A stretch of 23,594 nucleotides of DNA, taken from IMG/VR virus record IMGVR_UViG_2563366837_000008, one strand, 5' to 3'. The DNA is from a virus. Taxonomy: Duplodnaviria > Heunggongvirae > Uroviricota > Caudoviricetes. Positions 2,280 to 17,217 of this stretch are shown here, piece after piece. A program made the position numbers and the translations under genes. How positions within the stretch are numbered: the first letter of the stretch is position 1; every line of letters starts with the position of its first letter. The notes beneath the pieces were generated by a model that was not told where the DNA came from, ran no database searches, and saw only the letters and a program-made list of their open reading frames with translations.

Positions 2280-2990
2280 ATGCGCCTATAAGGCTCTCTT
2301 ACCAGCCGCGCCCTAACAGGCGCACACGATCTGACATTTGCATCCAACTTCGTTACTTACGGCCCGTAAACGGGCTGCCCGGATAGGGAATCGATAACTG
2401 CTCTCCCATTTTATCCTCTTCAAGCTGGTGCTTTATGTAATCCTGTATCTTCGCCGTGTTCTTACCCACCGTATCGACGTAGTACCCTCTGCACCAGAAC
2501 TCCCTGTTCCTGTATTTGAATTTCAAATCACCAAACTGCTCGTAAAGCATCAGACTGCTTTTCCCTTTCAGATATCCCATAAAGCCGGATACGCTCATTT
2601 TGGGCGGGATCTCCACAAGCATATGGATATGATCTGCACAGCATTCAGCTTCCAGAATCCGTACACTTTTCCACTCACACAGCTTTCTCAAAATACTGCC
2701 TATTGCTCTACGCTTCTCTCTGTAGAACACCTGTCTTCGGTATTTTGGCGCAAAAACTATGTGATATTTACAGTTCCATCGGGTGTGCGCTAAGCTCTTT
2801 TCGTTCCCCATTGGGACCCCCTTTTGATTTCTTGTTTGACACTTGCAGTTGCCAGACCGCAAGGTGTTTTAACAAATCAAAAGGGGTTTTAATAACTGGC
2901 TTAAAGCTGAAAGCTTTCCGGAACCCCCAGCCTAGCTGGGGGTTTTCTGTGCACAAAAAAAGCCACCAGTTAAGTACTGATGGCTCTGAT
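2280..2990 (-). mobile_element. IS200-family insertion sequence (IS200/IS605 group), about 0.7 kb; boundaries approximate
   Basis: Contains a 152-aa IS200-type TnpA; perfect hairpin ACCCCCAGC-CTA-GCTGGGGGT followed by TTTT at 2923..2946 upstream of tnpA, the characteristic IS200 left-end structure. Exact ends not determinable by eye. Confidence 0.6.
2353..2811 (-). CDS. tnpA: IS200 transposase TnpA (HUH/Y1 single-strand transposase), 152 aa
   Basis: MGNEKSLAHTRWNCKYHIVFAPKYRRQ... with the HUH motif (HIHMLVEIPP) and catalytic Tyr region; the track ORF starts 17 codons upstream at an alternative start. Confidence 0.9.
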   Translation of the reverse strand: MGNEKSLAHTRWNCKYHIVFAPKYRRQVFYREKRRAIGSILRKLCEWKSVRILEAECCADHIHMLVEIPPKMSVSGFMGYLKGKSSLMLYEQFGDLKFKYRNREFWCRGYYVDTVGKNTAKIQDYIKHQLEEDKMGEQLSIPYPGSPFTGRK

Positions 2991-3069
2991 AACTCATGCA
3001 GGCATCTCAGACGACCCACTGACACTACCGGTGAGTTTAACGATACCTTCCATTTGGCTGGCTCACTTT

Positions 3070-4923
3070 TTATGATGATGCCGGTGCATTTATCTCCAGC
3101 ACCAGACTTTCTATCTCAACGCCATACGCTGCATTTTTGGTAATATCCGTCAGCGTCAGCGCATTCAGCCCCAGTGTCAGACTGTCTTTTATGACCTGGA
3201 ATGCCGGGCCAGCCACTCCATTCAGTTTCGGAGTAACCGTGGCACTGCCGGCGGTGAACACCAGCTCCAGCGTCTGCCAGTCGTTACTGTAATTCCCGAA
3301 CTCGCCCAACTTTGTGTTTCCTGCTTTCTTGTGATGCATCAGATTCAGTTTGCCGTCTGTGGTCTGGGTGAAGAACGACATCAGGAACGGGTTACCAGTC
3401 CCGGTCATCGCCACGACGTCAGGTAACGCTACATCGGTATACAGATAAATTCCCAGACCGAACTGGTTGTTGGTCAGTGCGCCTGACAGTCGAAACTTAC
3501 AGCTCAGTCTGCCACCCCGTGTCAGCAGGGAGACTGCGTCATCCACCGGGCGCGTCAGGGACCAGGCTTTATTGCTCTGCTTGGTGATCTTAAATACACC
3601 ATCTGACAACTGAATTCCGCCATTCTTAATGCTCCAGCCCTGCGCAGCAGCGTCTCCGGCTGTCGGCAACAGGGAGATTGTGCGTATGGATGCATCTTCA
3701 GACGGCCCCGATGGCGTGTCGCCGCCGGGCGAGGCTTTGATTTCCGGTGCCTTACCACTAATGAAGGCTAAGGTGCGACCGGCTACGTTCAGAATAGCCG
3801 TTGCCATACGATCGGGAATAATGCCACGACGCGCCCATGAGCTGAAATGCGTCGGGCGATTTGATGATACCCAGTTTTTGTTCGTTCGGGATGCCGAACC
3901 GTAATAACCAGACCCGGCAATATCAGGATCTTCTGACGGGTTGTTTGTCGGTGTATTAACTCCGCTACCATCGGTCATAAAGGGAACAAAATAAATCTGC
4001 TGGGATTCTTTACCTTTATATGCACCATATACCACTTCATATTGCGTACCGTGTTCTTGTTTCCACGCGTATGTCGTGTCGCCACAAATCCAGGGGACTG
4101 ATGCCGGACTTCCACCGTGACACTGCGCCGCCAGCCCGGCAAGGTCAGCACGGAACTGCTGTACCATTGCAAGAAATGCTGCTGGCTGCTGGGCGTAACT
4201 GGCATTCGTCATATCGAATTCCCCCTGCATCCAGCATATCGCCAGCAAAACGTTTTTCGGGTTTTTCTGCAATGCTGCCTTCGTGCGGAAAAGCAGATCC
4301 TGATATAACGGCTTACCCACTCCCCAGCGAGCCGAATCCTGACTGGCTCCCGTGGACTCGCTGAATGTCCCCTCCGTGCCCTGGGTGAATGCCGAACCAC
4401 CACGACAGCATGGTACCAGCAGGATCCCCGCATTATTAGGGATATACGGAAGCAGTTTTTTGGCAATATGTAAGCCCTGTCCGACACAGCCGTACTGCCC
4501 TTTGCTCAGGTCAGCCCGGGGATGGTTAATCGTACTCATATCCTGAACATCATGCAGACAATGGTCAGCAGGAATGATGTCGTTAAATACGCATACTTCA
4601 CCACCGGGAGTCACTGTGTTACGACGGGCCAGTTGCTTAATGCGCGGATGGGGCGCATCGTATGAATCCGGAAGCGGAAGCCCTTCACCGTAAGCCATGG
4701 CATTGGATTGCCCGGCCAGTACGATGACGTAGTACCACTCCGGCTCAGTTGCACCACTGACGACCACATCACCTTCTGCTGCAATCGCCTGCATCAGGGT
4801 ATAAGGGGTTATGGCCACCGGACTACCAAACGGCTGCCAGCCCTCCTTCAGTTTTTGTGTCAGTCGTTTCGCAAGGTCTGACGGCGATGCCGCCCTGACC
4901 ACGTCATAGTGTTTAAATGCCAT
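3070..4923 (-). CDS. nanS: NanS-p-like prophage sialate O-acetylesterase (DUF1737 + SASA/SGNH hydrolase + C-terminal domain), 617 aa
   Basis: N-terminus MAFKHYDVVRAASPSDLAKRL...; SGNH-type nucleophile motif LAGQSNAMAYGEG; size and architecture match the esterase encoded just downstream of stx in Stx prophages (from memory). Confidence 0.8.
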   Translation of the reverse strand: MAFKHYDVVRAASPSDLAKRLTQKLKEGWQPFGSPVAITPYTLMQAIAAEGDVVVSGATEPEWYYVIVLAGQSNAMAYGEGLPLPDSYDAPHPRIKQLARRNTVTPGGEVCVFNDIIPADHCLHDVQDMSTINHPRADLSKGQYGCVGQGLHIAKKLLPYIPNNAGILLVPCCRGGSAFTQGTEGTFSESTGASQDSARWGVGKPLYQDLLFRTKAALQKNPKNVLLAICWMQGEFDMTNASYAQQPAAFLAMVQQFRADLAGLAAQCHGGSPASVPWICGDTTYAWKQEHGTQYEVVYGAYKGKESQQIYFVPFMTDGSGVNTPTNNPSEDPDIAGSGYYGSASRTNKNWVSSNRPTHFSSWARRGIIPDRMATAILNVAGRTLAFISGKAPEIKASPGGDTPSGPSEDASIRTISLLPTAGDAAAQGWSIKNGGIQLSDGVFKITKQSNKAWSLTRPVDDAVSLLTRGGRLSCKFRLSGALTNNQFGLGIYLYTDVALPDVVAMTGTGNPFLMSFFTQTTDGKLNLMHHKKAGNTKLGEFGNYSNDWQTLELVFTAGSATVTPKLNGVAGPAFQVIKDSLTLGLNALTLTDITKNAAYGVEIESLVLEINAPASS

Positions 4924-5113
4924 GAATCCTCCCGGGCGGGATAATGTTGTGAGTCAGATAAGGAGCAGGCTGAAGTCCGGAAGTTACAGGACAATGGCAG
5001 AAGGGAGACTACAGCCCGCAATTCGAAAAAGACCGCGCAGTTGCGCAGAGTGATTACTATGGGGTATTATTCGCCAGCTGAAATATTACTTCACGTTTTA
5101 TTGTTTATTCCTT

Positions 5114-5145
5114 GCCGCCCGCGTCTCCCAGCGCGGGCTTTTTTT
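5114..5145 (+). terminator. Rho-independent terminator on the + strand (GCCCGCG-loop-CGCGGGC followed by TTTTTTT)
   Basis: Perfect 7-bp GC stem and a 7-T run seen directly; no + strand gene upstream is apparent. Confidence 0.5.
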
Positions 5146-5149
5146 GTCC

Positions 5150-5176
5150 ATAAGAAAGCCCCTCCGGAGAGGGGCT
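5150..5176 (-). terminator. Rho-independent terminator on the - strand (AGCCCCTC-CGGA-GAGGGGCT followed on the - strand by TTTCTT); 3' end of repeat unit A
   Basis: 8-bp GC stem plus U-rich tract on the - strand; an identical hairpin recurs at 5644..5663 (unit B). Confidence 0.45.
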
Positions 5177-5395
5177 AAAGCCGCGTATCTGTATCATCAT
5201 GCACATGGTGCCGGGTGCCTCCCGGTGAGTTCAGCCCGGTGCCACTAAACCCGCGTCATTCTCGTTTTGATAATCAGAGATTATACCGTCACCAGTCGCC
5301 CCTCCGCTCAGGGGGATTCACCATGCGAAATTTTTTTAACAAATGCCCAGTCTGACAGGCAACTGTCAACTTACTGAATTGTGAGCAACATAGCA
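5153..5395. repeat. Non-coding direct repeat unit A, about 240 bp
   Basis: Shares with unit B these conserved blocks: AAAGCCCCTCCGGAGAGGGGCT, GCATGGTGCCGGGTGCCTCCCGGTGA, GCCCCTCCGC(T/A)CAGGGGGATTCACCATGC, TTTTAACAAA, CTGAATTGTGAG. Conservation is at hairpin/nucleotide level and falls in different reading frames in the two copies. Confidence 0.6.
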
Positions 5396-5421
5396 TTTAA
5401 CGGGGAACCTGTTTTCTGCAG

Positions 5422-5455
5422 TAAAAAGGCCCACCGGAGCGGATGGGCCTGGAAG
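5422..5455 (-). terminator. Terminator-like hairpin on the - strand (AGGCCCA...TGGGCCT followed by TTTTT) between the two repeat units
   Basis: Inverted repeat plus T-run (A-run on +) seen in the sequence. Confidence 0.4.
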
Positions 5456-5637
5456 GATAGCGGTCATGTGATGCCGGTTTCCCGGTAACTCAGCACCGGT
5501 ATCTGAGTCAACGTTTTCTCTACTGGGTCATTTCCGATACGCCCTGCCTGCTGACAGGCTTTCATCACATCTGAAAATATAGCACCCTGACTGATACTGT
5601 AGTACCTAAGGTTCCAGAAACTGTGATGTATCCGGCA

Positions 5638-5865
5638 CAGAAAAGCCCCTCCGGAGAGGGGCTGGAGAGTGGCGCTATGTGCCATTGCATGGTGCCGGGT
5701 GCCTCCCGGTGAATTCAGTACCAGCACCTGAATCCGCGATTATCCCATATACCTACTCGCTGATTGCCCCTCCGCACAGGGGGATTCACCATGCCAGTTT
5801 CTTTTAACAAACTCCCCGCAAACCAGACAACAGTCAACCGCCTGAATTGTGAGACATTTAAAAAA
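5638..5865. repeat. Non-coding direct repeat unit B (paralog of unit A), ending on the - strand in the same GC hairpin plus U-tract (5644..5663)
   Basis: See unit A; roughly 65-70 % identity overall by eye, with near-identical hairpin cores. Confidence 0.6.
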
Positions 5866-5897
5866 AGCCCGCAAAAGCGAGCCAGGGAAAATAAGTG

Positions 5898-5974
5898 TGG
5901 CGCGTTGTACTGGATTCGAACCAGTGACCGATTGCTTAGAAGGCAATTGCTCTGTCCGGCTGAGCTAACAACGC
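5898..5974 (-). tRNA. tRNA-Arg (anticodon UCU), 77 nt
   Basis: Hand-folded cloverleaf: acceptor GCGTTGT/ACAACGC, D stem GCTC/GAGC, anticodon stem ATTGC/GCAAT with loop CTTCTAA, T arm ACTGG-TTCGAAT-CCAGT, discriminator G plus CCA. Confidence 0.8.
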
Positions 5975-5987
5975 AGGATACAGATAA

Positions 5988-6064
5988 TGGACCGCCTTCG
6001 GGGACCCGAACTCCGCGCAACCAGCTTCGAAGGCTGGCGCTCTATCCTGATGAGCTAATGGCGG
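5988..6064 (-). tRNA. tRNA-Arg-like (anticodon UCG), 77 nt, with non-canonical features
   Basis: Anticodon stem CCAGC/GCTGG with loop CTTCGAA and D arm GCTC...GAGC are clean, but my fold has one acceptor-stem mismatch, one T-stem mismatch and T-loop TTCGGGT (G at position 58). Could be functional or degenerate. Confidence 0.5.
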
Positions 6065-6071
6065 TATGTGA

Positions 6072-6147
6072 TGGTGGCCCTTGCTGGATTTGAACCAGCG
6101 ACCTGGCGATTATGAGTCGCTCGCTCTCACCACTGAGCTAAAGGGCC
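6072..6147 (-). tRNA. ileZ: tRNA-Ile2 (anticodon CAU, lysidine-type; reads AUA), 76 nt
   Basis: Near-identical to E. coli ileX by memory (GGCCCTTTAGCTCAGTGGTGAGAGCGAGCGACTCATAATCGCCAGGTCGCTGGTTCAAATCCAGCAAGGGCCACCA); first tRNA downstream of Q, as ileZ is in Stx phages. Confidence 0.8.
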
Positions 6148-9689: not shown

Positions 9690-9947
9690 TCACGCAGTAA
9701 ACTCCTTCACCAGCGTTTCAAACTGGCTTACCTGTCCTTCCAGTTCCGCCACGCAATCCACCAGCTCATCCACCGCCTTTTGTGTGCGGTGTTTTGCCTG
9801 CAGCAGATCACGAAGCGCCGGAGTAAGCTGCTTGCGGAGCGTATCTTTTTTCACGCTCGTTTTTTCCATCTGTTCAGCACAACGAAGCATCTCCTGCGCC
9901 TGCCGACGAAGTTGTTCCGGTGAAACAGTGATTGTTCTGTTGTTCAA
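9690..9947 (-). CDS. Hypothetical protein, 85 aa, predicted coiled-coil, between helicase and DUF968
   Basis: 4-bp start/stop overlap with the upstream helicase gene (translational coupling); no recognisable domain. Confidence 0.5.
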   Translation of the reverse strand: MNNRTITVSPEQLRRQAQEMLRCAEQMEKTSVKKDTLRKQLTPALRDLLQAKHRTQKAVDELVDCVAELEGQVSQFETLVKEFTA

Positions 9948-11344
9948 AATAAACGCTCCGTTTTACTGCCCGACATGCGGTTATTGCTGTATCTGCGCGG
10001 ATTGCCCGGCGTCATGGGTGTGGAAAGAACCCGGGCACTCTCCTGGTCCACAGGCAGAAAATGTCCGTTATGAAAACGCCGGTAAATGGTCCCGAGTGTG
10101 CCATTACGCTGTTTCGTGATGTTGATTTCTGCTATGCCTCTGGCCTGTGTATCCGGGTTATACACCTCATCCCTGTAAAGCATCAGAATGATGTCGGCAT
10201 CAGCCTCTATTTCCCCGGAGTTTTTCAGGTCTGAGTTCATGGGACGTTTATTGGGTCTGGATTCCACGCCTCGGGAGAGCTGGCTCAGAGCAATCAGCGG
10301 GAAACCGCCGGATTTTGCCAGGCTTTTAAGTCCCTTTGAGATTTCCCCCACAGCAAGGTCGTGACGCCCCGTGCTGCGGGTTTTAATCAGACCGAGGTAA
10401 TCGACCACCACCAGCGCCGTTTCCGGGTGTTTCATCCGGTGGTGCTTCGTGGTTGCACATATCTCATCAATGGTCAGGTTTGCCTGATCCACCATCCAGA
10501 TATTACGCCCCGTCATTCGTCCCACGCCCTGCGAGAAACGCGCCCAGTCTTCATCTTCAAAACGGGCAACAGACTTAAGACGGGATACCGGCATTCCACC
10601 GGCAGCAGACACCATACGTTCACCAATCTGGATGTTCGCCATCTCCATGGTGAACAGAAGCACGCCATGCCCCTGCTCAGTCACCTTGTCGATGATGTCC
10701 AGCGCAAGTTCGGTTTTCCCCATCGAAGGACGGGCGGCAATGAATACCAGGTCACCGGGCTCCATACCGCCCGTTTTTGCGTCCAGTTCATCAATACCGG
10801 TCATCAGCGCCCTGGATTTCTCCAGTCCCTGATTGCGGCATTCAACACGGTCGACCACTTCCGGAAGGACATCATCAATGTGAACCGGCTGAATGACGCC
10901 CTTTCCGGTCGACAGTGAGGCCATCATGTTCTGCACATCCTTCAGGGCATCCTCGGCTGCTTCACAGGTATACGCATCACGTAAATTCTGTAATGCTTCA
11001 GTCAGTGTTTTTTCTGCATCGCGCAGTGCGGCATTGCGCCGCAACGCTGCGACATAGTGCTCCAGTGAAGACTTCACCCAGGTTTTGCGTCCGGTGTCGG
11101 TAATCACCGGGGCAAGTTCCGGCATCTCATTGCACAGCAGTACGGGGTCAATGACGCCGGATATGCGAGCCTGTCTGCAAATCCCCGCGTAAATATCCCG
11201 GTACTGACGCACAAAAAATACATCCGCCGGAAGTGTGGCCAGAATATCCATCACTTCCGGATCGGCCCCACGCAGAAAAAACGCACCGATGACAGCGCCT
11301 TCCAGGTCATCGTTACGCCATGCCGGGGTGTTCTGGCTGGTCAT
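9944..11344 (-). CDS. Replicative DNA helicase, DnaB family, 466 aa
   Basis: Walker A AARPSMGKTELALD, Walker B-like LVVVDYLGLI, and DnaB-like N-terminal domain; 4-bp overlap with the upstream loader gene. Confidence 0.85.
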   Translation of the reverse strand: MTSQNTPAWRNDDLEGAVIGAFFLRGADPEVMDILATLPADVFFVRQYRDIYAGICRQARISGVIDPVLLCNEMPELAPVITDTGRKTWVKSSLEHYVAALRRNAALRDAEKTLTEALQNLRDAYTCEAAEDALKDVQNMMASLSTGKGVIQPVHIDDVLPEVVDRVECRNQGLEKSRALMTGIDELDAKTGGMEPGDLVFIAARPSMGKTELALDIIDKVTEQGHGVLLFTMEMANIQIGERMVSAAGGMPVSRLKSVARFEDEDWARFSQGVGRMTGRNIWMVDQANLTIDEICATTKHHRMKHPETALVVVDYLGLIKTRSTGRHDLAVGEISKGLKSLAKSGGFPLIALSQLSRGVESRPNKRPMNSDLKNSGEIEADADIILMLYRDEVYNPDTQARGIAEINITKQRNGTLGTIYRRFHNGHFLPVDQESARVLSTPMTPGNPRRYSNNRMSGSKTERLF

Positions 11345-12249
11345 GCGGCAACACCTCCGATACGAGAACGGTAGCTGGGCCAGTTAAACGACAACCAGTT
11401 GCGCCCGCCATCGGTGATCCTGTCGGCAATCCGGGGACTGATGAACGCCCACAATTCTTCCGGTGAAAGGTTGCTGATCAGGATAGTTGGCAAAATACCC
11501 TCATACCGGGCATTGATAATTTCCTGCAAAATGGCCATTTCAGCCGCACTGCCAAACTGAACGCCGACTTCGTCGACAATCAGCAAATCCAGTGACGCAT
11601 AATGCTCAATGACGTCATCCGCTGTTTTTTCACTGTCATTCCGCCAGCAGTTTTTCACAGCCCGGGTAAGGCGCATCACGTCGGTGATCTCCACACTGGC
11701 CAGATAGTTACGGATGATGTGTTTTGCCATTGATACCGCCAGATGATTTTTCCCGGTACCGCAACTGCCGGTCATAACAAGACTGGTACCGTTCTCCAGC
11801 ATATCTGGCCAGTTCTCCGCATAGCGGCGACAGGCCGCAAGATTTCTGGCTGCGTCAGGATTAACCTCCAGATAATTATCAAACTCGCAGTCCCGAAAAC
11901 GCAGAGCAATTCCGGCGTTATCAGTCAGTTCTTCCGCCTTGAGGGACGACAGTTCCATGGTCAAATCACTGGCCTCAGCGATCAAGCAGTCAGGGCAGCA
12001 TGAAATTTTTTCTCTGTCCTCGCCATTACGATCGATCCACACCAGTATATGCGTACGATATTTACCGTGTTTTTCGCAATATCCGCGACCTTCACGCATC
12101 AGGCAGGAACGATAAGGCCATGGCTTTTCGCCCTTCTGAGCAAATGCAATCTCTGCCCGTAACTCATCCATTTCTGCCCGTAACTCATCCATTCGCGCCT
12201 GTAGTCTTGTTTGTTTCTCACGTTGGTCAATCGTCATCATCGCTGTCAC
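11341..12249 (-). CDS. DnaC/IstB-like AAA+ helicase loader, 302 aa
   Basis: Walker A GSCGTGKNHLA, Walker B LLIVDEVG; N-terminal coiled-coil and Cys-rich region; contains a 21-bp in-frame tandem duplication (MDELRAE x2). Confidence 0.85.
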   Translation of the reverse strand: MTAMMTIDQREKQTRLQARMDELRAEMDELRAEIAFAQKGEKPWPYRSCLMREGRGYCEKHGKYRTHILVWIDRNGEDREKISCCPDCLIAEASDLTMELSSLKAEELTDNAGIALRFRDCEFDNYLEVNPDAARNLAACRRYAENWPDMLENGTSLVMTGSCGTGKNHLAVSMAKHIIRNYLASVEITDVMRLTRAVKNCWRNDSEKTADDVIEHYASLDLLIVDEVGVQFGSAAEMAILQEIINARYEGILPTILISNLSPEELWAFISPRIADRITDGGRNWLSFNWPSYRSRIGGVAA

Positions 12250-12250
12250 C

Positions 12251-13243
12251 TCAGAATGTCAATTTGTTACTGGATTTACCGAATTTGTCAGACATGGCTC
12301 CCAGGCCAGCCAGGACATCGACCTGTCGCTGTCGCCCACCTCCGTGAGCGGCTGGCTGTTGCCAGTAATCTTCGAAGTGACGATCGGGTCCAAAGAACGT
12401 CGCAGCCTGCTTCACGAACTGTGTGCCGGTATTTCCTGTAGCACGTACCCAGGCGGCATACCGCTTCACGCCATCAAGCATGGTCTCCGGTTTTATTCCC
12501 TCCCTGATACGGGCTTTCCAGGCTTTGAAGGCTGCTGACTTGGAATTGCCACCAGCACGTTTGGGATATTCCTGCCAGGCCTGTTCAAATTCCGATGAAT
12601 ATTCCTGTCGGGCAGAACGCGCTGGCGCAGACGCGTCAGCGGATGCATCAATAGTGTTTTTAGTCTCCGTTGTAATCTCTGTAGTAATCTCTGTATTTGT
12701 ATCAACATTCGGCGTATCCCCTGTTCCGTTATGACGTCGGGGGGTGTTCCGTTTTAACGTAATAGCTGTATCGCTGATTGCATTATTGCTGTTACTTTCT
12801 GGCGAAACAGAAGAAGGTGTGGTGATGGCCGCAATTGCCTGTGGGTTGATCCCGACAAACAAAATATTGCTGCATTTCACCCCATCGAGCATTTCCACCG
12901 TGCGTAAATCCAGAGTAATAAACCCTGCATCGCGCAGACGCTTCAGCGCATCTGCGGTTTCCCTTTTCCCGAAACCAAACTGCTCAGCAAACGCCTGGTA
13001 GCTTCTTTGCAGTTTGTCGCCCTGAAAACGCTTGCGATATCCCAGCAACGCTCCGGTGTGCTCATCCCTGACCTCTGTCGGGCGGTACCAGTAAACGATC
13101 TCTGAAAGCAGAGCGATAGCCGTCGCATCCGGACGCCCACTGGGTAGTCGAATATATTTCCACCAGTTCGCAGGTGTAACATTGCCGGAAATATTAATTT
13201 GACCAATAGCCATAACTTCCGGTGTGGGGGCGTAACGGCTCAT
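12251..13243 (-). CDS. Replication initiation protein, YdaU/DUF1376-like, 330 aa
   Basis: Position directly upstream of the loader and helicase; C-terminal region EFEQAWQEYPKRAGGNSKSAAFKAWKARI resembles DUF1376 from memory; iteron-like repeats inside the gene. Confidence 0.65.
   Translation of the reverse strand: MSRYAPTPEVMAIGQINISGNVTPANWWKYIRLPSGRPDATAIALLSEIVYWYRPTEVRDEHTGALLGYRKRFQGDKLQRSYQAFAEQFGFGKRETADALKRLRDAGFITLDLRTVEMLDGVKCSNILFVGINPQAIAAITTPSSVSPESNSNNAISDTAITLKRNTPRRHNGTGDTPNVDTNTEITTEITTETKNTIDASADASAPARSARQEYSSEFEQAWQEYPKRAGGNSKSAAFKAWKARIREGIKPETMLDGVKRYAAWVRATGNTGTQFVKQAATFFGPDRHFEDYWQQPAAHGGGRQRQVDVLAGLGAMSDKFGKSSNKLTF
12660..12700. repeat. Iteron-like short direct repeats inside the initiator gene (2 perfect 12-bp copies GTAATCTCTGTA plus degenerate flanking copies); candidate ori
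   Basis: Tandem GTAATCTCTGTA at 12672..12683 and 12684..12695, flanked by similar GTCTCCGTTG and TTTGTATCAAC; encodes TEITTEITTE in the protein. Confidence 0.3.
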
Positions 13244-13539
13244 ACAACCTCCTTCCGCGGCATGAGAATTGTGTAGCCACGCGCAGGTTGTAGTCTGGCT
13301 TTTGCATCAATAGTAAGCGTTGCAATTTTTCGGATATGAAGATAACCAGCTCTTTCCAGTGCCAGGGTTTCCCTGAATATCGCTTGCTTAGAACAACAGC
13401 AGAAATCAGCAAGCACCTGATGATCAATAACTCTCTCGCCTTCACCGTCTGAAGAACCCGACATCAAAACACGCAACATAATCAGGCGCTGAATCGGGTT
13501 ATCGAAAGCACATCCGCACACAAACTGAAAACAGTTCAC
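13240..13539 (-). CDS. Hypothetical protein, 99 aa, possible winged-helix DNA-binding fold
   Basis: 4-bp overlaps with both neighbours; segment VIDHQVLADFCCCSKQAIFRETLALERAGYLHIRK looks winged-helix-like; no firm family assignment. Confidence 0.5.
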   Translation of the reverse strand: MNCFQFVCGCAFDNPIQRLIMLRVLMSGSSDGEGERVIDHQVLADFCCCSKQAIFRETLALERAGYLHIRKIATLTIDAKARLQPARGYTILMPRKEVV

Positions 13540-13760: not shown

Positions 13761-13951
13761 GGACGCACCTCCACCGTAGTTACGTATTTAACCGGGCTAC
13801 CTTTCATTGAGATGGTTTCACACATCTCTGCCGCTTTCAGTTCCGCTGTTTTTCTGGATTTATAGCGACGGTGCCAGACAGATACATCCGTGCGAACTGA
13901 TACATCGTTTCTGTATTCCGTAGTGGAGATGATGATTTCGTAACTAATCAT
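13757..13951 (-). CDS. Hypothetical protein, 64 aa
   Basis: ORF with 4-bp overlaps with the upstream Rha gene and the downstream gene. Confidence 0.5.
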   Translation of the reverse strand: MISYEIIISTTEYRNDVSVRTDVSVWHRRYKSRKTAELKAAEMCETISMKGSPVKYVTTVEVRP

Positions 13952-14802
13952 GGGCGAACCTCCTTGTCAGAACCATTCAGCCTGGAATCAACAAGTGCAG
14001 CGCCAAAAACAGCATCACCAACACGGTCGTACAGTTTGCTAGCCAGCGGAGATTCAACGGCCTTAAGCATTGGATAAAGCTGGCTTGTCCAGATTTGATG
14101 GATTTCACGCAAATGCAGGTATACGCCTCTGGCGTTTCGTGCGACAGCTGACATATCAGACGCATCGGCACCTGATAAACTCTTCTCCATCAGGTTAAAG
14201 GCGTTGATGTATGCCTCTTTGAACCGGGCAGCACGTTTACCAGTGAAGCCCATGGCAAGGAACGCGAAGCCATCGCGGGTGATTTGATAGCAAGGTAGTT
14301 TGCGGCCTGATGCGTCGGTGTATTCACTTAACACAAAATTGTGTTCAGTAAATTCAGCGGAACATTCGAGGTTTCTAATTCTATCTAAAACCCGCTCATG
14401 CCGTTTAGTAAAGTAATTAGCTACTGCAAGAGATGTGGTGACAACGCGACCATTGATAATCGTGATTTCAGGGTGAGATTGGGTTGGGAGAGTAGTCATG
14501 GTGACAGCCCCTATGTTGAATTCAATGAACTCACCACCAAGGCTTTCCACGACCATATAGGTGGTGAGACGTACAGGGGTGGAAATACCGGTCAACATAG
14601 AACCCGGCCCAACCGAAGTTGGCCCTGCACGCCCCACCATAATTTGGGCGTAACGATGCTCATGACACGAAAAAACCGCATGAGCGCGGTTGTGCTCTAT
14701 ATTGAATTTCGGGTTTCCACGCCCGGCACCCGCTTTATAAGGTGCCTGAGCAGTGTAACGTCCCGGAATTGCAGAATCAATATTTGGTCTTGAAATGATC
14801 AT
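13948..14802 (-). CDS. Phage regulatory protein Rha family (Phage_pRha domain in the C-terminal half); start uncertain, 284 aa from 14802 or 183 aa from 14499
   Basis: Rha-like block VVTTSLAVANYFTKRHERVLDRIRNL...YTDASGRKLPCYQITRDGFAFLAMGFTGKRAARFKEAYINAFNLME; the internal ATG at 14499 has a strong AGGGG RBS, the ATG at 14802 has none. Confidence 0.7.
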   Translation of the reverse strand: MIISRPNIDSAIPGRYTAQAPYKAGAGRGNPKFNIEHNRAHAVFSCHEHRYAQIMVGRAGPTSVGPGSMLTGISTPVRLTTYMVVESLGGEFIEFNIGAVTMTTLPTQSHPEITIINGRVVTTSLAVANYFTKRHERVLDRIRNLECSAEFTEHNFVLSEYTDASGRKLPCYQITRDGFAFLAMGFTGKRAARFKEAYINAFNLMEKSLSGADASDMSAVARNARGVYLHLREIHQIWTSQLYPMLKAVESPLASKLYDRVGDAVFGAALVDSRLNGSDKEVRP

Positions 14803-14825
14803 ATAGCTGCTGATATCTTTAGAAC

Positions 14826-14911
14826 TGTTCTTGGATGTTTCGGAGCCGTTTTATGCGAAACAGCTCCCCGTTATTGATGTTGAGTGAGCCGGGTTACTCC
14901 CGGCTTTTTTT
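14826..14911 (+). ncRNA. Candidate OOP-like antisense small RNA, about 85 nt, ending at the + strand terminator
   Basis: Putative promoter TTGAAA (14790..14795), 18-bp spacer, TATCTT (14814..19), then an internal stem-loop (GGAGC...GCTCC) and the terminator; architecture and antisense position resemble lambda OOP. Inference only. Confidence 0.3.
14887..14911 (+). terminator. Rho-independent terminator on the + strand (AGCCGGG-TTACT-CCCGGCT followed by TTTTTTT), antisense to the pR operon
   Basis: Perfect 7-bp stem plus 7-T run; the T-run overlaps the stop codon of the upstream - strand gene. Confidence 0.5.
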
Positions 14912-15618
14912 CATCGCTGCCAACCAATAACCTGAAATAACCCCATTTTCGGGTGATACCAGCGAGTCCCTCGCGGTTCTGCTTCCTCCATAACCCGATA
15001 AAAAGCAGCCATAAACGGTTCCACAGCAACAATTGCGCGACGTGACAACAATCCGTCCGGCGTCATGAACTCATGTGTGTCTGTAGGAATTTGATAGGCG
15101 TTCACCAGATTGCGGCATTTATCATCTGACAAACCGGTTTTTGCTTTCAGTTGGCGATATCCGGCATAGCCCTCACGAATAGTGCCCTTTTTAATTTGCT
15201 CGACTGTTTCAGCAACGTGGCTGACTTTTTCTTCCACCTGAGTGATCCGTTTCTGTTGGCGAACGGCTTCAAGAGCCATCGCGGCAACCATTTCGATTTC
15301 GCTCATTGGCTTACGGATCTGTTCTTCCAGTTCGCGCCAGCGATCTACCAGGCAAGCTGTGAATTCAGGACAGAGCTGTGCGACGACAATGATGCTGTCG
15401 CGCTTACCTCGTTCACCTTCGAATACATACGCGCTAGAAAATCGGCGAGGCCCAAGTGATTGTTTATTCTCAATTTCCACAGTCTGTGGAAATTGGATGA
15501 TTCCCTTTTTAGCCAGTGTTTCAATAGTTCTCTTAACACTATCTGGTCGGCTTCCCACCAACTCTGCGATCTCAACGCTGGTCATGGATGCTTTGCCGTT
15601 AAAAATTGCGGTGTTCAT
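14911..15618 (-). CDS. Phage regulatory / antirepressor-like protein with N-terminal HTH-type DNA-binding domain (Rha/ORF6N-like), 235 aa
   Basis: N-terminus MTSVEIAELVGSRPDSVKRTIETLAKKGII; strong AGGAGA RBS; first large gene downstream of the divergent operator region. Confidence 0.6.
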   Translation of the reverse strand: MNTAIFNGKASMTSVEIAELVGSRPDSVKRTIETLAKKGIIQFPQTVEIENKQSLGPRRFSSAYVFEGERGKRDSIIVVAQLCPEFTACLVDRWRELEEQIRKPMSEIEMVAAMALEAVRQQKRITQVEEKVSHVAETVEQIKKGTIREGYAGYRQLKAKTGLSDDKCRNLVNAYQIPTDTHEFMTPDGLLSRRAIVAVEPFMAAFYRVMEEAEPRGTRWYHPKMGLFQVIGWQR

Positions 15619-15842
15619 TGTTGGTCTCCTGTGGGCTTGTCATCTTCTGTATTCGCTAGACTTGGGTGTGTATATGGAATGCTCGGATCCAGATGACAAA
15701 GAATGGCAACATCCTCCGGAACACCTCGCGTTTTCCACTTTCCAACACCTTGACTGCCACGAGGCCTTCCTTTCTTTGGGAACCTGCGACCAATAGCGGC
15801 ATTGGTTTTAAATTGAATTTTTAATATTTCATAAAGGGTCAT
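15615..15842 (-). CDS. Candidate small gene at the cro position, 75 aa, basic with AT-hook-like KKGRPRG segment; doubtful
   Basis: ORF whose TGA overlaps the ATG of the next gene (ATGA); begins about 110 bp from the cI start across the operator region; weak RBS and Gly/Pro/Arg-rich low-complexity tail argue against it. Confidence 0.25.
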   Translation of the reverse strand: MTLYEILKIQFKTNAAIGRRFPKKGRPRGSQGVGKWKTRGVPEDVAILCHLDPSIPYTHPSLANTEDDKPTGDQQ

Positions 15843-16713: not shown

Positions 16714-17217
16714 ATGATCAATAAAGCTACAACTCTTGACTGTCTCGAAGAACTGAAAAACCTCGGCAGCCTCATTACACTAATAGCAAAAGCAACACCT
16801 GATGCTACGCTCTCTAGCGATATAGAGTCATGCGCAGGACTGGCATGGGATATGACAAATAGCATATCCAGAAAGCTATCGTCAGCAATGCTTTTACAGA
16901 ACAAAAATTCTGCAATCAACAACCGTCTTTGCACCCAACGCGAAGCCTGCGGCTTAACAACCGCCGAACTCGCCAGGCTGCTCGATCTCGATGAAGAAAT
17001 TATCATCCAGTGGGAGAGCGGAGAGTATGAACCAACTATCAGTATGCTTATCCCACTGGCAAATATTCTTGGCTGCGATCCGATGTGGCTGTTAACTGGT
17101 GAGGTTACTCCTCCGGAGCAACCAAAAAGTGAGGAGCAGCAACACCATGACGCATCTCAACAAGTTTGCCCCTTATCTCGCGAAGCTCTTCTACGGAAGA
17201 ACCAATACCAATGGTGA
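16714..17217 (+). CDS. Hypothetical HTH_XRE-domain protein, 167 aa, first gene downstream of the pL-like promoter
   Basis: GAGGT RBS 9 nt upstream; HTH in the C-terminal half (LCTQREACGLTTAELARLLDLDEEIIIQWESGEYEPTISMLIPLANILGCDPMWLLTGE); no arginine-rich N-like motif; Gln-rich low-complexity tail. Confidence 0.6.
   Translation: MINKATTLDCLEELKNLGSLITLIAKATPDATLSSDIESCAGLAWDMTNSISRKLSSAMLLQNKNSAINNRLCTQREACGLTTAELARLLDLDEEIIIQWESGEYEPTISMLIPLANILGCDPMWLLTGEVTPPEQPKSEEQQHHDASQQVCPLSREALLRKNQYQW

Follow-up and report, generated by a model that had tools for sequence, protein, structure and literature searches.

We analyzed a 23,594-nt stretch of DNA (IMG/VR record IMGVR_UViG_2563366837_000008), the whole of which we refer to as the window. 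It derives from a lambdoid prophage of Escherichia coli, and is 100% identical to strains NMBU_W05E18 and U1 over the 2 kb tested. Our subject is a short element at positions 14790–14911, between a gene that we call X and the promoter of the small RNA IsrK. X (14911..15618, − strand) encodes a 235-aa Ant/Rha-like protein, and is the second gene of the pR-side operon. The isrK promoter (14755..14783, − strand), recognized by eye, consists of TTGATT (14783–14778) and TACACT (14760–14755), separated by 17 bp. The element itself contains a promoter-like site, an internal stem-loop and an intrinsic terminator, all located where the original prediction, which proposed an antisense RNA similar to lambda OOP, had placed them. 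The best reading of our comparative data is that these features form a short, self-contained + strand unit, convergent with the pR-side operon, that would yield an RNA of ~85 nt.

The terminator (14886..14911, + strand) has the form GAGCCGGG-TTACT-CCCGGCTT followed by a run of T residues, which is T7 in the window and T6–T8 in relatives. Its stem (14886–14906) has eight base pairs, six of them G-C, and a loop of five nucleotides; the T7 occupies positions 14905–14911. The run reaches the X stop codon (TGA, 14913–14911 on the − strand), the A of which is complementary to the final T. Scanning both strands for runs of at least six T residues preceded by a hairpin of −12 kcal/mol or better, we found three sites in the 23.6-kb window, as compared to 0.06 ± 0.24 in 100 dinucleotide shuffles. 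The strong + strand terminator claimed to overlap the end of X is thus genuine in the sense that it is far beyond chance.

Upstream of the terminator, also on the + strand, is a candidate σ70 promoter with the −35 hexamer TTGAAA (14790..14795) and, at a spacing of 18 bp, an extended −10 element (14811..14819) made up of TG (14811–14812), one base, and TATCTT (14814–14819). By itself the promoter match is at chance level, and this weighs against a transcription unit: sites with its score of 9/12 occur 10 times in 6 kb, as compared to 9.0 ± 2.8 times in shuffled sequence. The validated lambda promoter pO receives the same score from the same tool (9/12, plus the TG), and therefore the consensus score cannot decide whether the site is a promoter.

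Comparison between relatives is more informative. The 132-bp stretch 14784–14915, which we refer to as type A, is present with at least 99% identity in 204 of 5426 complete E. coli genomes. Carriers of type A include E. coli O103:H2 12009, O55:H7 RM12579 and NMBU_W05E18. A search of IMG/VR and metagenomes yielded two diverged types besides that of the window, B and C, which add 33 E. coli genomes to the count; in all, about 237/5426 genomes carry the 128-bp element. The element is also found in nine phage records, including those of Stx2a- and Stx2d-converting phages. Its position is constant, between an X homologue and the isrK promoter with its “ash”-Rha open reading frame (ORF). The X stop codon forms its right boundary and the isrK −35 its left one: in BLAST against phages, the similarity shared with many other immI-type modules (those of ST64B, SfV and Stx1 phages) ends precisely there. 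These phages have a small DUF4222-like coding sequence where the element would be. When metagenomes were scanned from the isrK promoter and the −35, no fourth type came up, and hence no additional covariation. Scanning genome contigs with X recovered only distant X homologues (54–74% identity), all of which lack the element.

Types B and C are only 70–74% identical to type A, as compared to 95–98% for the adjacent 200 nt of X. Within this diverged sequence, all three types have kept TTGAAA, the 18-bp spacer, TGn, TAT(C/T)TT, the decamer GTTCTTGGAT, GTTGAG(C/T)GAGCCGGG-loop-CCCGGC, and T6–T8. The −35 hexamer is invariant save for a single variant, TTGGAA, seen at two loci (L054 and L129). In types B and C the extended −10 reads TGgTATTTT, again 18 bp from the −35, and the length of the spacer is kept although only 8/15 of its positions are identical between types. 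Between the −35 and the predicted start site, types A and B agree at 13/14 promoter-element positions, as compared to 10/23 of the others (Fisher p = 0.004). The decamer, at 14827..14836 on the + strand of the window, is identical in 15/15 aligned variants of the three types, the only departures being two singletons (L204 and L263); its distance downstream of the −10 is 7 nt for types A and B, but 13 nt for type C. The T run is T6–T8 in all 220 copies counted. At the position of the middle stem-loop of type A, types B and C have a stem-loop of different sequence. The conservation of promoter elements, decamer and terminator across diverged types is our main reason for accepting a + strand transcription unit. 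For the σ70 promoter of the original prediction, this means that support comes from conservation in three types and not from the match.

Could the terminator be the only functional part? It might act as a backstop against stray antisense transcription that comes from the replication/immI region and would enter X, cro and, in the sense orientation, cI; the promoter match would then be fortuitous. A match at chance level is compatible with this explanation, as is the arrangement in phiP27-type phages, which also have a + strand terminator on the X stop codon and a spacer of only 52 bp. Nonetheless, we consider it very unlikely. Diverged types share the promoter elements and the distance between them, our promoter scan found no other + strand promoter-like site between 12000 and 14790, and phiP27 too has, by eye, an extended −10 promoter at the matching distance.

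A further point against the proposed unit is that X also occurs without the element, and is then followed directly by a small DUF4222-like coding sequence (CDS) or by a different hairpin unit. The unit is therefore optional, and not obligatory for X. With a promoter and a terminator of its own at the sequence level, it has the make-up of a moron: a discrete insert that is present in some relatives and replaced in others. In the phages that lack it (L008, Stx1_14040, 1545–1736; also L006, L007, L009 and L049–L051), we observed a conserved CDS of ~60 aa, beginning MQVLNRWFRDGRG and DUF4222-like by our reading. This CDS takes up the space from X, or from a cII-like gene, to the isrK promoter, and is concealed in over-long annotations as “Ant” or “transcriptional regulator”.

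The hairpins of the element may also have a secondary role in the − strand message. More radically, they could exist for the − strand mRNA only, as 3ʹ stabilizers, as RNase III/E sites of the cro-X message, or as pauses ahead of the IsrK module, with the T run and the promoter hexamers as by-products. Several observations are in line with this and count against a + strand RNA. The type A spacer folds at least as well on the − strand (−28.5 kcal/mol, z = −5.1) as on the + strand (−28.0 kcal/mol, z = −2.7). The middle stem-loop (14842..14867) is slightly better on the − strand, where it has ten pairs including a G.U, than on the + strand, where it has nine pairs and a C.A mismatch at that position. 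Two natural G>A variants (L042-like and L041-like) pair on the − strand only. Moreover, compensatory double substitutions are absent from both stems, and structural support consists of conservation and a few wobble changes. Other observations point to the + strand or weaken the case for the − strand. For three wobble events of one sign, p is about 0.125, which is not significant. Types B and C fold 6–11 kcal/mol better on that strand (−30.7 versus −24.3, −31.8 versus −20.9, and −30.9 versus −24.8 kcal/mol). The T run, conserved as T6–T8, is on the + side of the stem only; a − strand RNA has CACUCAAC after the stem, and no U tract. The one variant of the terminator stem (C>T, in L082) forms a G.U pair on the + strand and an A.C mismatch on the − strand. 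Lastly, a function confined to the − strand leaves unexplained the conserved −35, TG and −10 at a fixed 18-bp spacing. Hence, we regard such a function as unlikely. These comparisons were made by folding the types separately. An RNAalifold consensus on a MAFFT alignment of the three types was dropped; it paired the decamer with a terminator arm, and is meaningless because a 1-nt difference in loop length misaligned the terminator.

We propose that 14790–14911 is an independent + strand gene for a small RNA (sRNA) of about 85 nt (14826..14911) that would pair in cis with read-through transcripts from pR, and would put the probability of this at roughly 55%. Transcription from the extended −10 σ70 promoter would start 7 ± 2 nt past the −10 (~14826), and the intrinsic terminator would end it within the T run at 14909–14912, giving an RNA of 84–87 nt. 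From its 5ʹ end, the predicted RNA has the decamer (as RNA, GUUCUUGGAU), which is a candidate seed, the middle stem-loop, an A/U-rich single-stranded linker (CCGUUAUUGAUGUUGAGU, 14868..14885) of which the GTTGAG part is conserved, and the terminator hairpin with U7. The minimum free energy of its fold is −28 kcal/mol (z = −2.7). Folding leaves the decamer unpaired in type A, but predicts that it is partly paired with GAGC(G) upstream of the terminator in types B and C.

Other interpretations of the sequence were considered and rejected. An ORF on the + strand from ATG 14835 was discarded since the ATG is absent from types B and C, and a mini-ORF beyond the X stop codon since its frame shifts with the length of the T run. 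The 131-aa + strand ORF at 14398–14793, which had been suggested to be non-coding, indeed has no Pfam match and is antisense to two Rfam RNAs. A reading of the conserved hexamers as a LexA box or an UP element was unconvincing by eye.

No Rfam family was found for the element at gathering thresholds, and a permissive search returned only sub-threshold matches driven by the terminator (sroD, with 24.5 bits versus a gathering score of 50, PrrF, SorX and SorY). A full-text literature search for the RNA sequence, covering both strands as DNA and as RNA, found no paper that contains it. A preprint on the regulatory regions of Stx phages takes the Ash/Rha ORFs to be protein-coding, with no mention of an RNA at this place (10.1101/2021.11.24.469858).

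What would such an RNA do? The sole target visible in the sequence is in cis, namely the spacer between X and isrK in pR transcripts that read past X, to which the RNA would be fully complementary. We infer that it acts by base pairing. Transcription head-on towards pR, together with duplex formation and cleavage by RNase III as for lambda OOP, would cut or attenuate read-through. X would in this way be uncoupled from the downstream IsrK/C4-rha-replication block, which would be left to the isrK promoter and the C4 switch. The gene would be a discrete mosaic module between X and the P4-like IsrK-C4 immunity module described below.

The invariant decamer fits poorly with this proposal, in that an antisense RNA acting only in cis would not need it. 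A purely cis role does not account for the decamer, and an additional or alternative target in trans is a serious alternative, also suggested by the layout of the RNA. The RNA could be real and act in trans as an Hfq-type sRNA encoded by a prophage moron, with GUUCUUGGAU as the seed against an mRNA or sRNA of the host or against a competing phage's transcript, and with the complementarity to pR transcripts being incidental. Consistent with this, the 10 nt at the 5ʹ end do not vary between types that otherwise share 70–74% identity, and the predicted RNA has a conserved single-stranded 5ʹ region, a stem-loop, an A/U-rich linker and a U7-8 terminator. This architecture is the layout of Hfq-dependent sRNAs. 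The promoter could also be active in lysogens, as we found no operator or repeat common to the element and the cI-cro region. On the other hand, we found no convincing trans target for the decamer in the window or in related loci, those without the element included; the best trans duplexes, at −13 to −17 kcal/mol, are at background level. There is no second copy of the decamer, or of its complement, elsewhere in the window, and a 9-nt match to it in the cro-cI spacer of phiP27 is no better than matches in other loci. The predicted partial pairing of the decamer in types B and C also counts against action in trans. The element may belong to a so far undescribed family of Hfq-type sRNAs that prophages encode and that act in trans through the seed GUUCUUGGAU, present in about 4% of E. 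coli genomes and in Stx2a and Stx2d phages. We take this tentative possibility seriously, but consider it doubtful.

The invariance of the decamer might also reflect a site that functions as DNA. In type A, GTTCTTGGAT is part of the palindrome AGAAC-T-GTTCT, which could be bound by X, Rha or a host factor to control the isrK promoter. The motif is conserved though its carriers differ in their cI and cro genes, and X, a DNA-binding protein, is always encoded next to it. However, the palindrome is not kept in types B and C, the motif is 82–91 bp upstream of the isrK transcription start, and a DNA site explains neither the terminator nor the promoter hexamers. We consider this explanation highly improbable.

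The map of the surrounding region also needs correction. We propose the order X, candidate small RNA gene, isrK promoter, IsrK, C4 and rha, which replaces the annotation of a 284-aa “Ash/Rha” protein. IsrK, corresponding to seqA (the a1b1 part) of phage P4, is at 14669..14745 (− strand; Rfam RF01394, 61.6 bits versus a gathering score of 50), and a C4/CI-type antisense RNA is at 14557..14644 (− strand; Rfam RF01695, 82.4 bits versus a gathering score of 45). The isrK promoter is correctly placed upstream of the Rfam IsrK 5ʹ end, and this block is kept in 67 matched phage records. The candidate + strand promoter and the isrK promoter are back-to-back, with 6 bp between their −35 elements. Both RNAs are inside the first 100 codons of the 284-aa ORF (13948–14802) that RefSeq annotates as “Rha family phage regulatory protein”, which corrects the original description of the element as being between two Rha-type regulator genes.

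Several observations indicate where rha begins. The Pfam Rha domain starts only at residue 122 of the 284-aa ORF, and a 183-aa version from ATG 14499 (13948..14499, − strand) matches phrog_821 across its whole length (residues 1–182). From 14802 to 14500, substitutions among relatives have no third-codon-position bias. The true start of rha is probably ATG 14499, and the RefSeq annotations “ash family protein” and 284-aa “Rha family” are probably over-extended. The Pfam family Phage_ASH (PF10554) matches residues 16–112 of the window ORF, which is the IsrK and C4 segment. In phage P4 (L302, 8168–8584), PF10554 matches an obsolete “cI gene product” ORF that overlaps the Rfam C4 hit, i.e. the P4 CI RNA, and the derepression protein epsilon of P4 matches another family, PF25738. 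PF10554 thus appears to be a conceptual translation of the C4/CI RNA gene, and we explain its match in the window in the same way. The Rfam hits for IsrK and C4, the late start of the Rha domain and the Phage_ASH match in P4 therefore identify a P4-like immunity module that consists of a promoter, IsrK (seqA/a1b1), C4/CI, a leader with target boxes, and rha. The Gifsy-1 isrK locus, as described and compared with P4 in an earlier study, is in agreement with this layout (PMC4825925).

The prophage of the window is lambdoid and Stx-phage-like, and its P4-type module (13948–14783, − strand) immediately precedes rha and the replication genes. The replication genes (9944–13539, − strand, to the left of X) encode an O-like initiator, a helicase loader and a DnaB-like helicase. 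IsrK has an intrinsic terminator (14691–14674, plus T6) that is in the path of pR transcripts. The position of this terminator and the type of module suggest, by analogy with P4, that expression of the replication genes may be under an RNA-controlled termination switch.

To the right of the element, X is annotated as a “Rha family transcriptional regulator”. Its product has a Rha-like winged-helix N-terminus, with Pfam Rha and helix-turn-helix (HTH) matches, and matches phrog_63 “anti-repressor Ant” (E = 7e-45). A perfect 12-bp inverted repeat within its coding region, CAATTTCCACAG / CTGTGGAAATTG (15471–15495, the two arms being 1 nt apart), may be a protein-binding site or an RNA hairpin in the gene. 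Next to X are a 75-aa gene in the position of cro (15615–15842, − strand) and a LexA-family/S24 repressor gene (+ strand, PGAP start at about 15954). On the cI side of the switch, a gene for a 167-aa HTH protein (16714–17217, + strand) matches phrog_4836 “CII-like regulator”; a CII-like function, if there is one, is therefore not encoded beside cro as is lambda cII. Elsewhere in the window, a cluster of Rfam RNAs on the − strand (2821–6147) contains STnc490 (2821–2944), two copies of STnc100 (5146–5355 and 5633–5823) and three tRNAs (5901–6147). The other two strict intrinsic terminators of the window adjoin this cluster, with T runs at 5139 (+ strand) and 2961 (− strand); the one at about 5139 is directed into the 3ʹ end of STnc100.

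How does the candidate compare with known phage RNAs? Lambda OOP (77 nt, transcribed from pO) is likewise a short RNA that starts from an extended −10 promoter of its own, is convergent with the pR operon and ends at an intrinsic terminator near the end of the gene after cro, and the candidate, at ~85 nt, is of similar size. OOP is established to act through an antisense duplex and RNase III (PMC12197685, PMC7067206). The likeness claimed in the original prediction thus extends to layout and size, but not further. In the window the upstream gene is the Ant/Rha-like X and not cII. The predicted RNA overlaps its coding region by no more than 3 nt. OOP overlaps about 55 nt of cII, the gene of the lysogeny activator CII; its terminator is inside cII, and its pairing triggers cleavage within the cII message. 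The candidate promoter is back-to-back with that of isrK, whereas pO is where gene O begins. Apart from a generic terminator, the two sequences are not homologous: the best local alignment to OOP covers the terminator region only, with a score of 12 as compared to 8.1 ± 1.6 for shuffles (fraction 0.037). Rfam offered no OOP model for comparison, as the lambda oop region itself gave no hit. The candidate also has an invariant 5ʹ decamer across its three types, a comparison that we did not make for OOP.

Phage P22 sar (68–69 nt) is another small convergent RNA, in the antirepressor region of immI, and it ends just past the upstream gene, as the candidate would. Sar covers the ribosome-binding site of ant (PMC12197685). 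In contrast, no supported gene has its Shine-Dalgarno sequence or start codon within the RNA predicted in the window: the real start of rha appears to be at 14499, and the ATG at 14802, which belongs to the probably spurious ORF, is upstream of the predicted RNA start. Rfam sar has no match in the window or in phiP27. IsrK, the C4 RNAs of P1 and P7, and P4 CI are related by location, as neighbors in the same regulatory region, with IsrK divergent from the candidate. Small phage RNAs of this kind control the expression of antirepressor or replication genes (PMC4825925, PMC12197685). The candidate differs from them in being on the opposite strand, outside the IsrK-C4 transcript, and unrelated in sequence and structure. 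By eye, it has no conserved complementarity to IsrK, C4 or the a/b target boxes; a match of 7–9 bp is present in type A only.

Hfq-dependent sRNAs of prophages, such as DicF and the enterohaemorrhagic E. coli (EHEC) anti-sRNAs AsxR and AgvB, resemble the candidate in being stand-alone promoter-terminator units in lambdoid prophages, about 55–90 nt long, with a U-rich 3ʹ end and a conserved single-stranded segment (PMC12197685). As judged from DNA sequence, the element has the promoter of its own and the Rho-independent terminator with at least six U residues that are asked of an Hfq-dependent sRNA. The difference is that the candidate is unrelated in sequence to any sRNA in Rfam. We conclude that the element is probably a new small RNA gene, though one of a known kind; its layout is like that of OOP or sar, but it is outside the OOP family.

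A counterpart in phiP27-type phages is consistent with this conclusion. There, the sequence after X is unrelated, but the X stop codon is again overlapped, on the same strand, by a hairpin, GGCCGG(T)-loop-(G)CCGGCC, with a T-rich tail. By eye, a promoter is formed by TTGATT (L002 2936–2941), 18 bp, and TGaTATTGT (2957–2965). The unit as a whole (L002 2936–3030) is conserved in IMG/VR loci L196, L197, L207, L212 and L213, and the IsrK-C4 pair of phiP27 is further downstream. The predicted RNA, of about 57 nt, would begin where the following gene, L15 (“Ant”), has its GTG start codon, and would be antisense to the L15 Shine-Dalgarno sequence, in a layout like that of sar. We count this unit, which appears to have the same architecture at the same place, in favor of the + strand reading.

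If the element is expressed, it would be a third RNA player beside IsrK and C4 in the early regulatory region of a group of lambdoid prophages. Among them are Stx2a- and Stx2d-converting phages, in which toxin output is controlled by induction. If a trans-acting family were the true explanation, its RNA would act on a host or competing-phage transcript, for example by biasing induction, immunity or host physiology, beyond trimming expression of its own operon. Since antisense RNAs and sRNAs with such a layout are already known from phages, the conceptual gain is modest. The arrangement offers a compact system in which to study the insulation of modules by convergent and divergent small transcription units in mosaic phage genomes.

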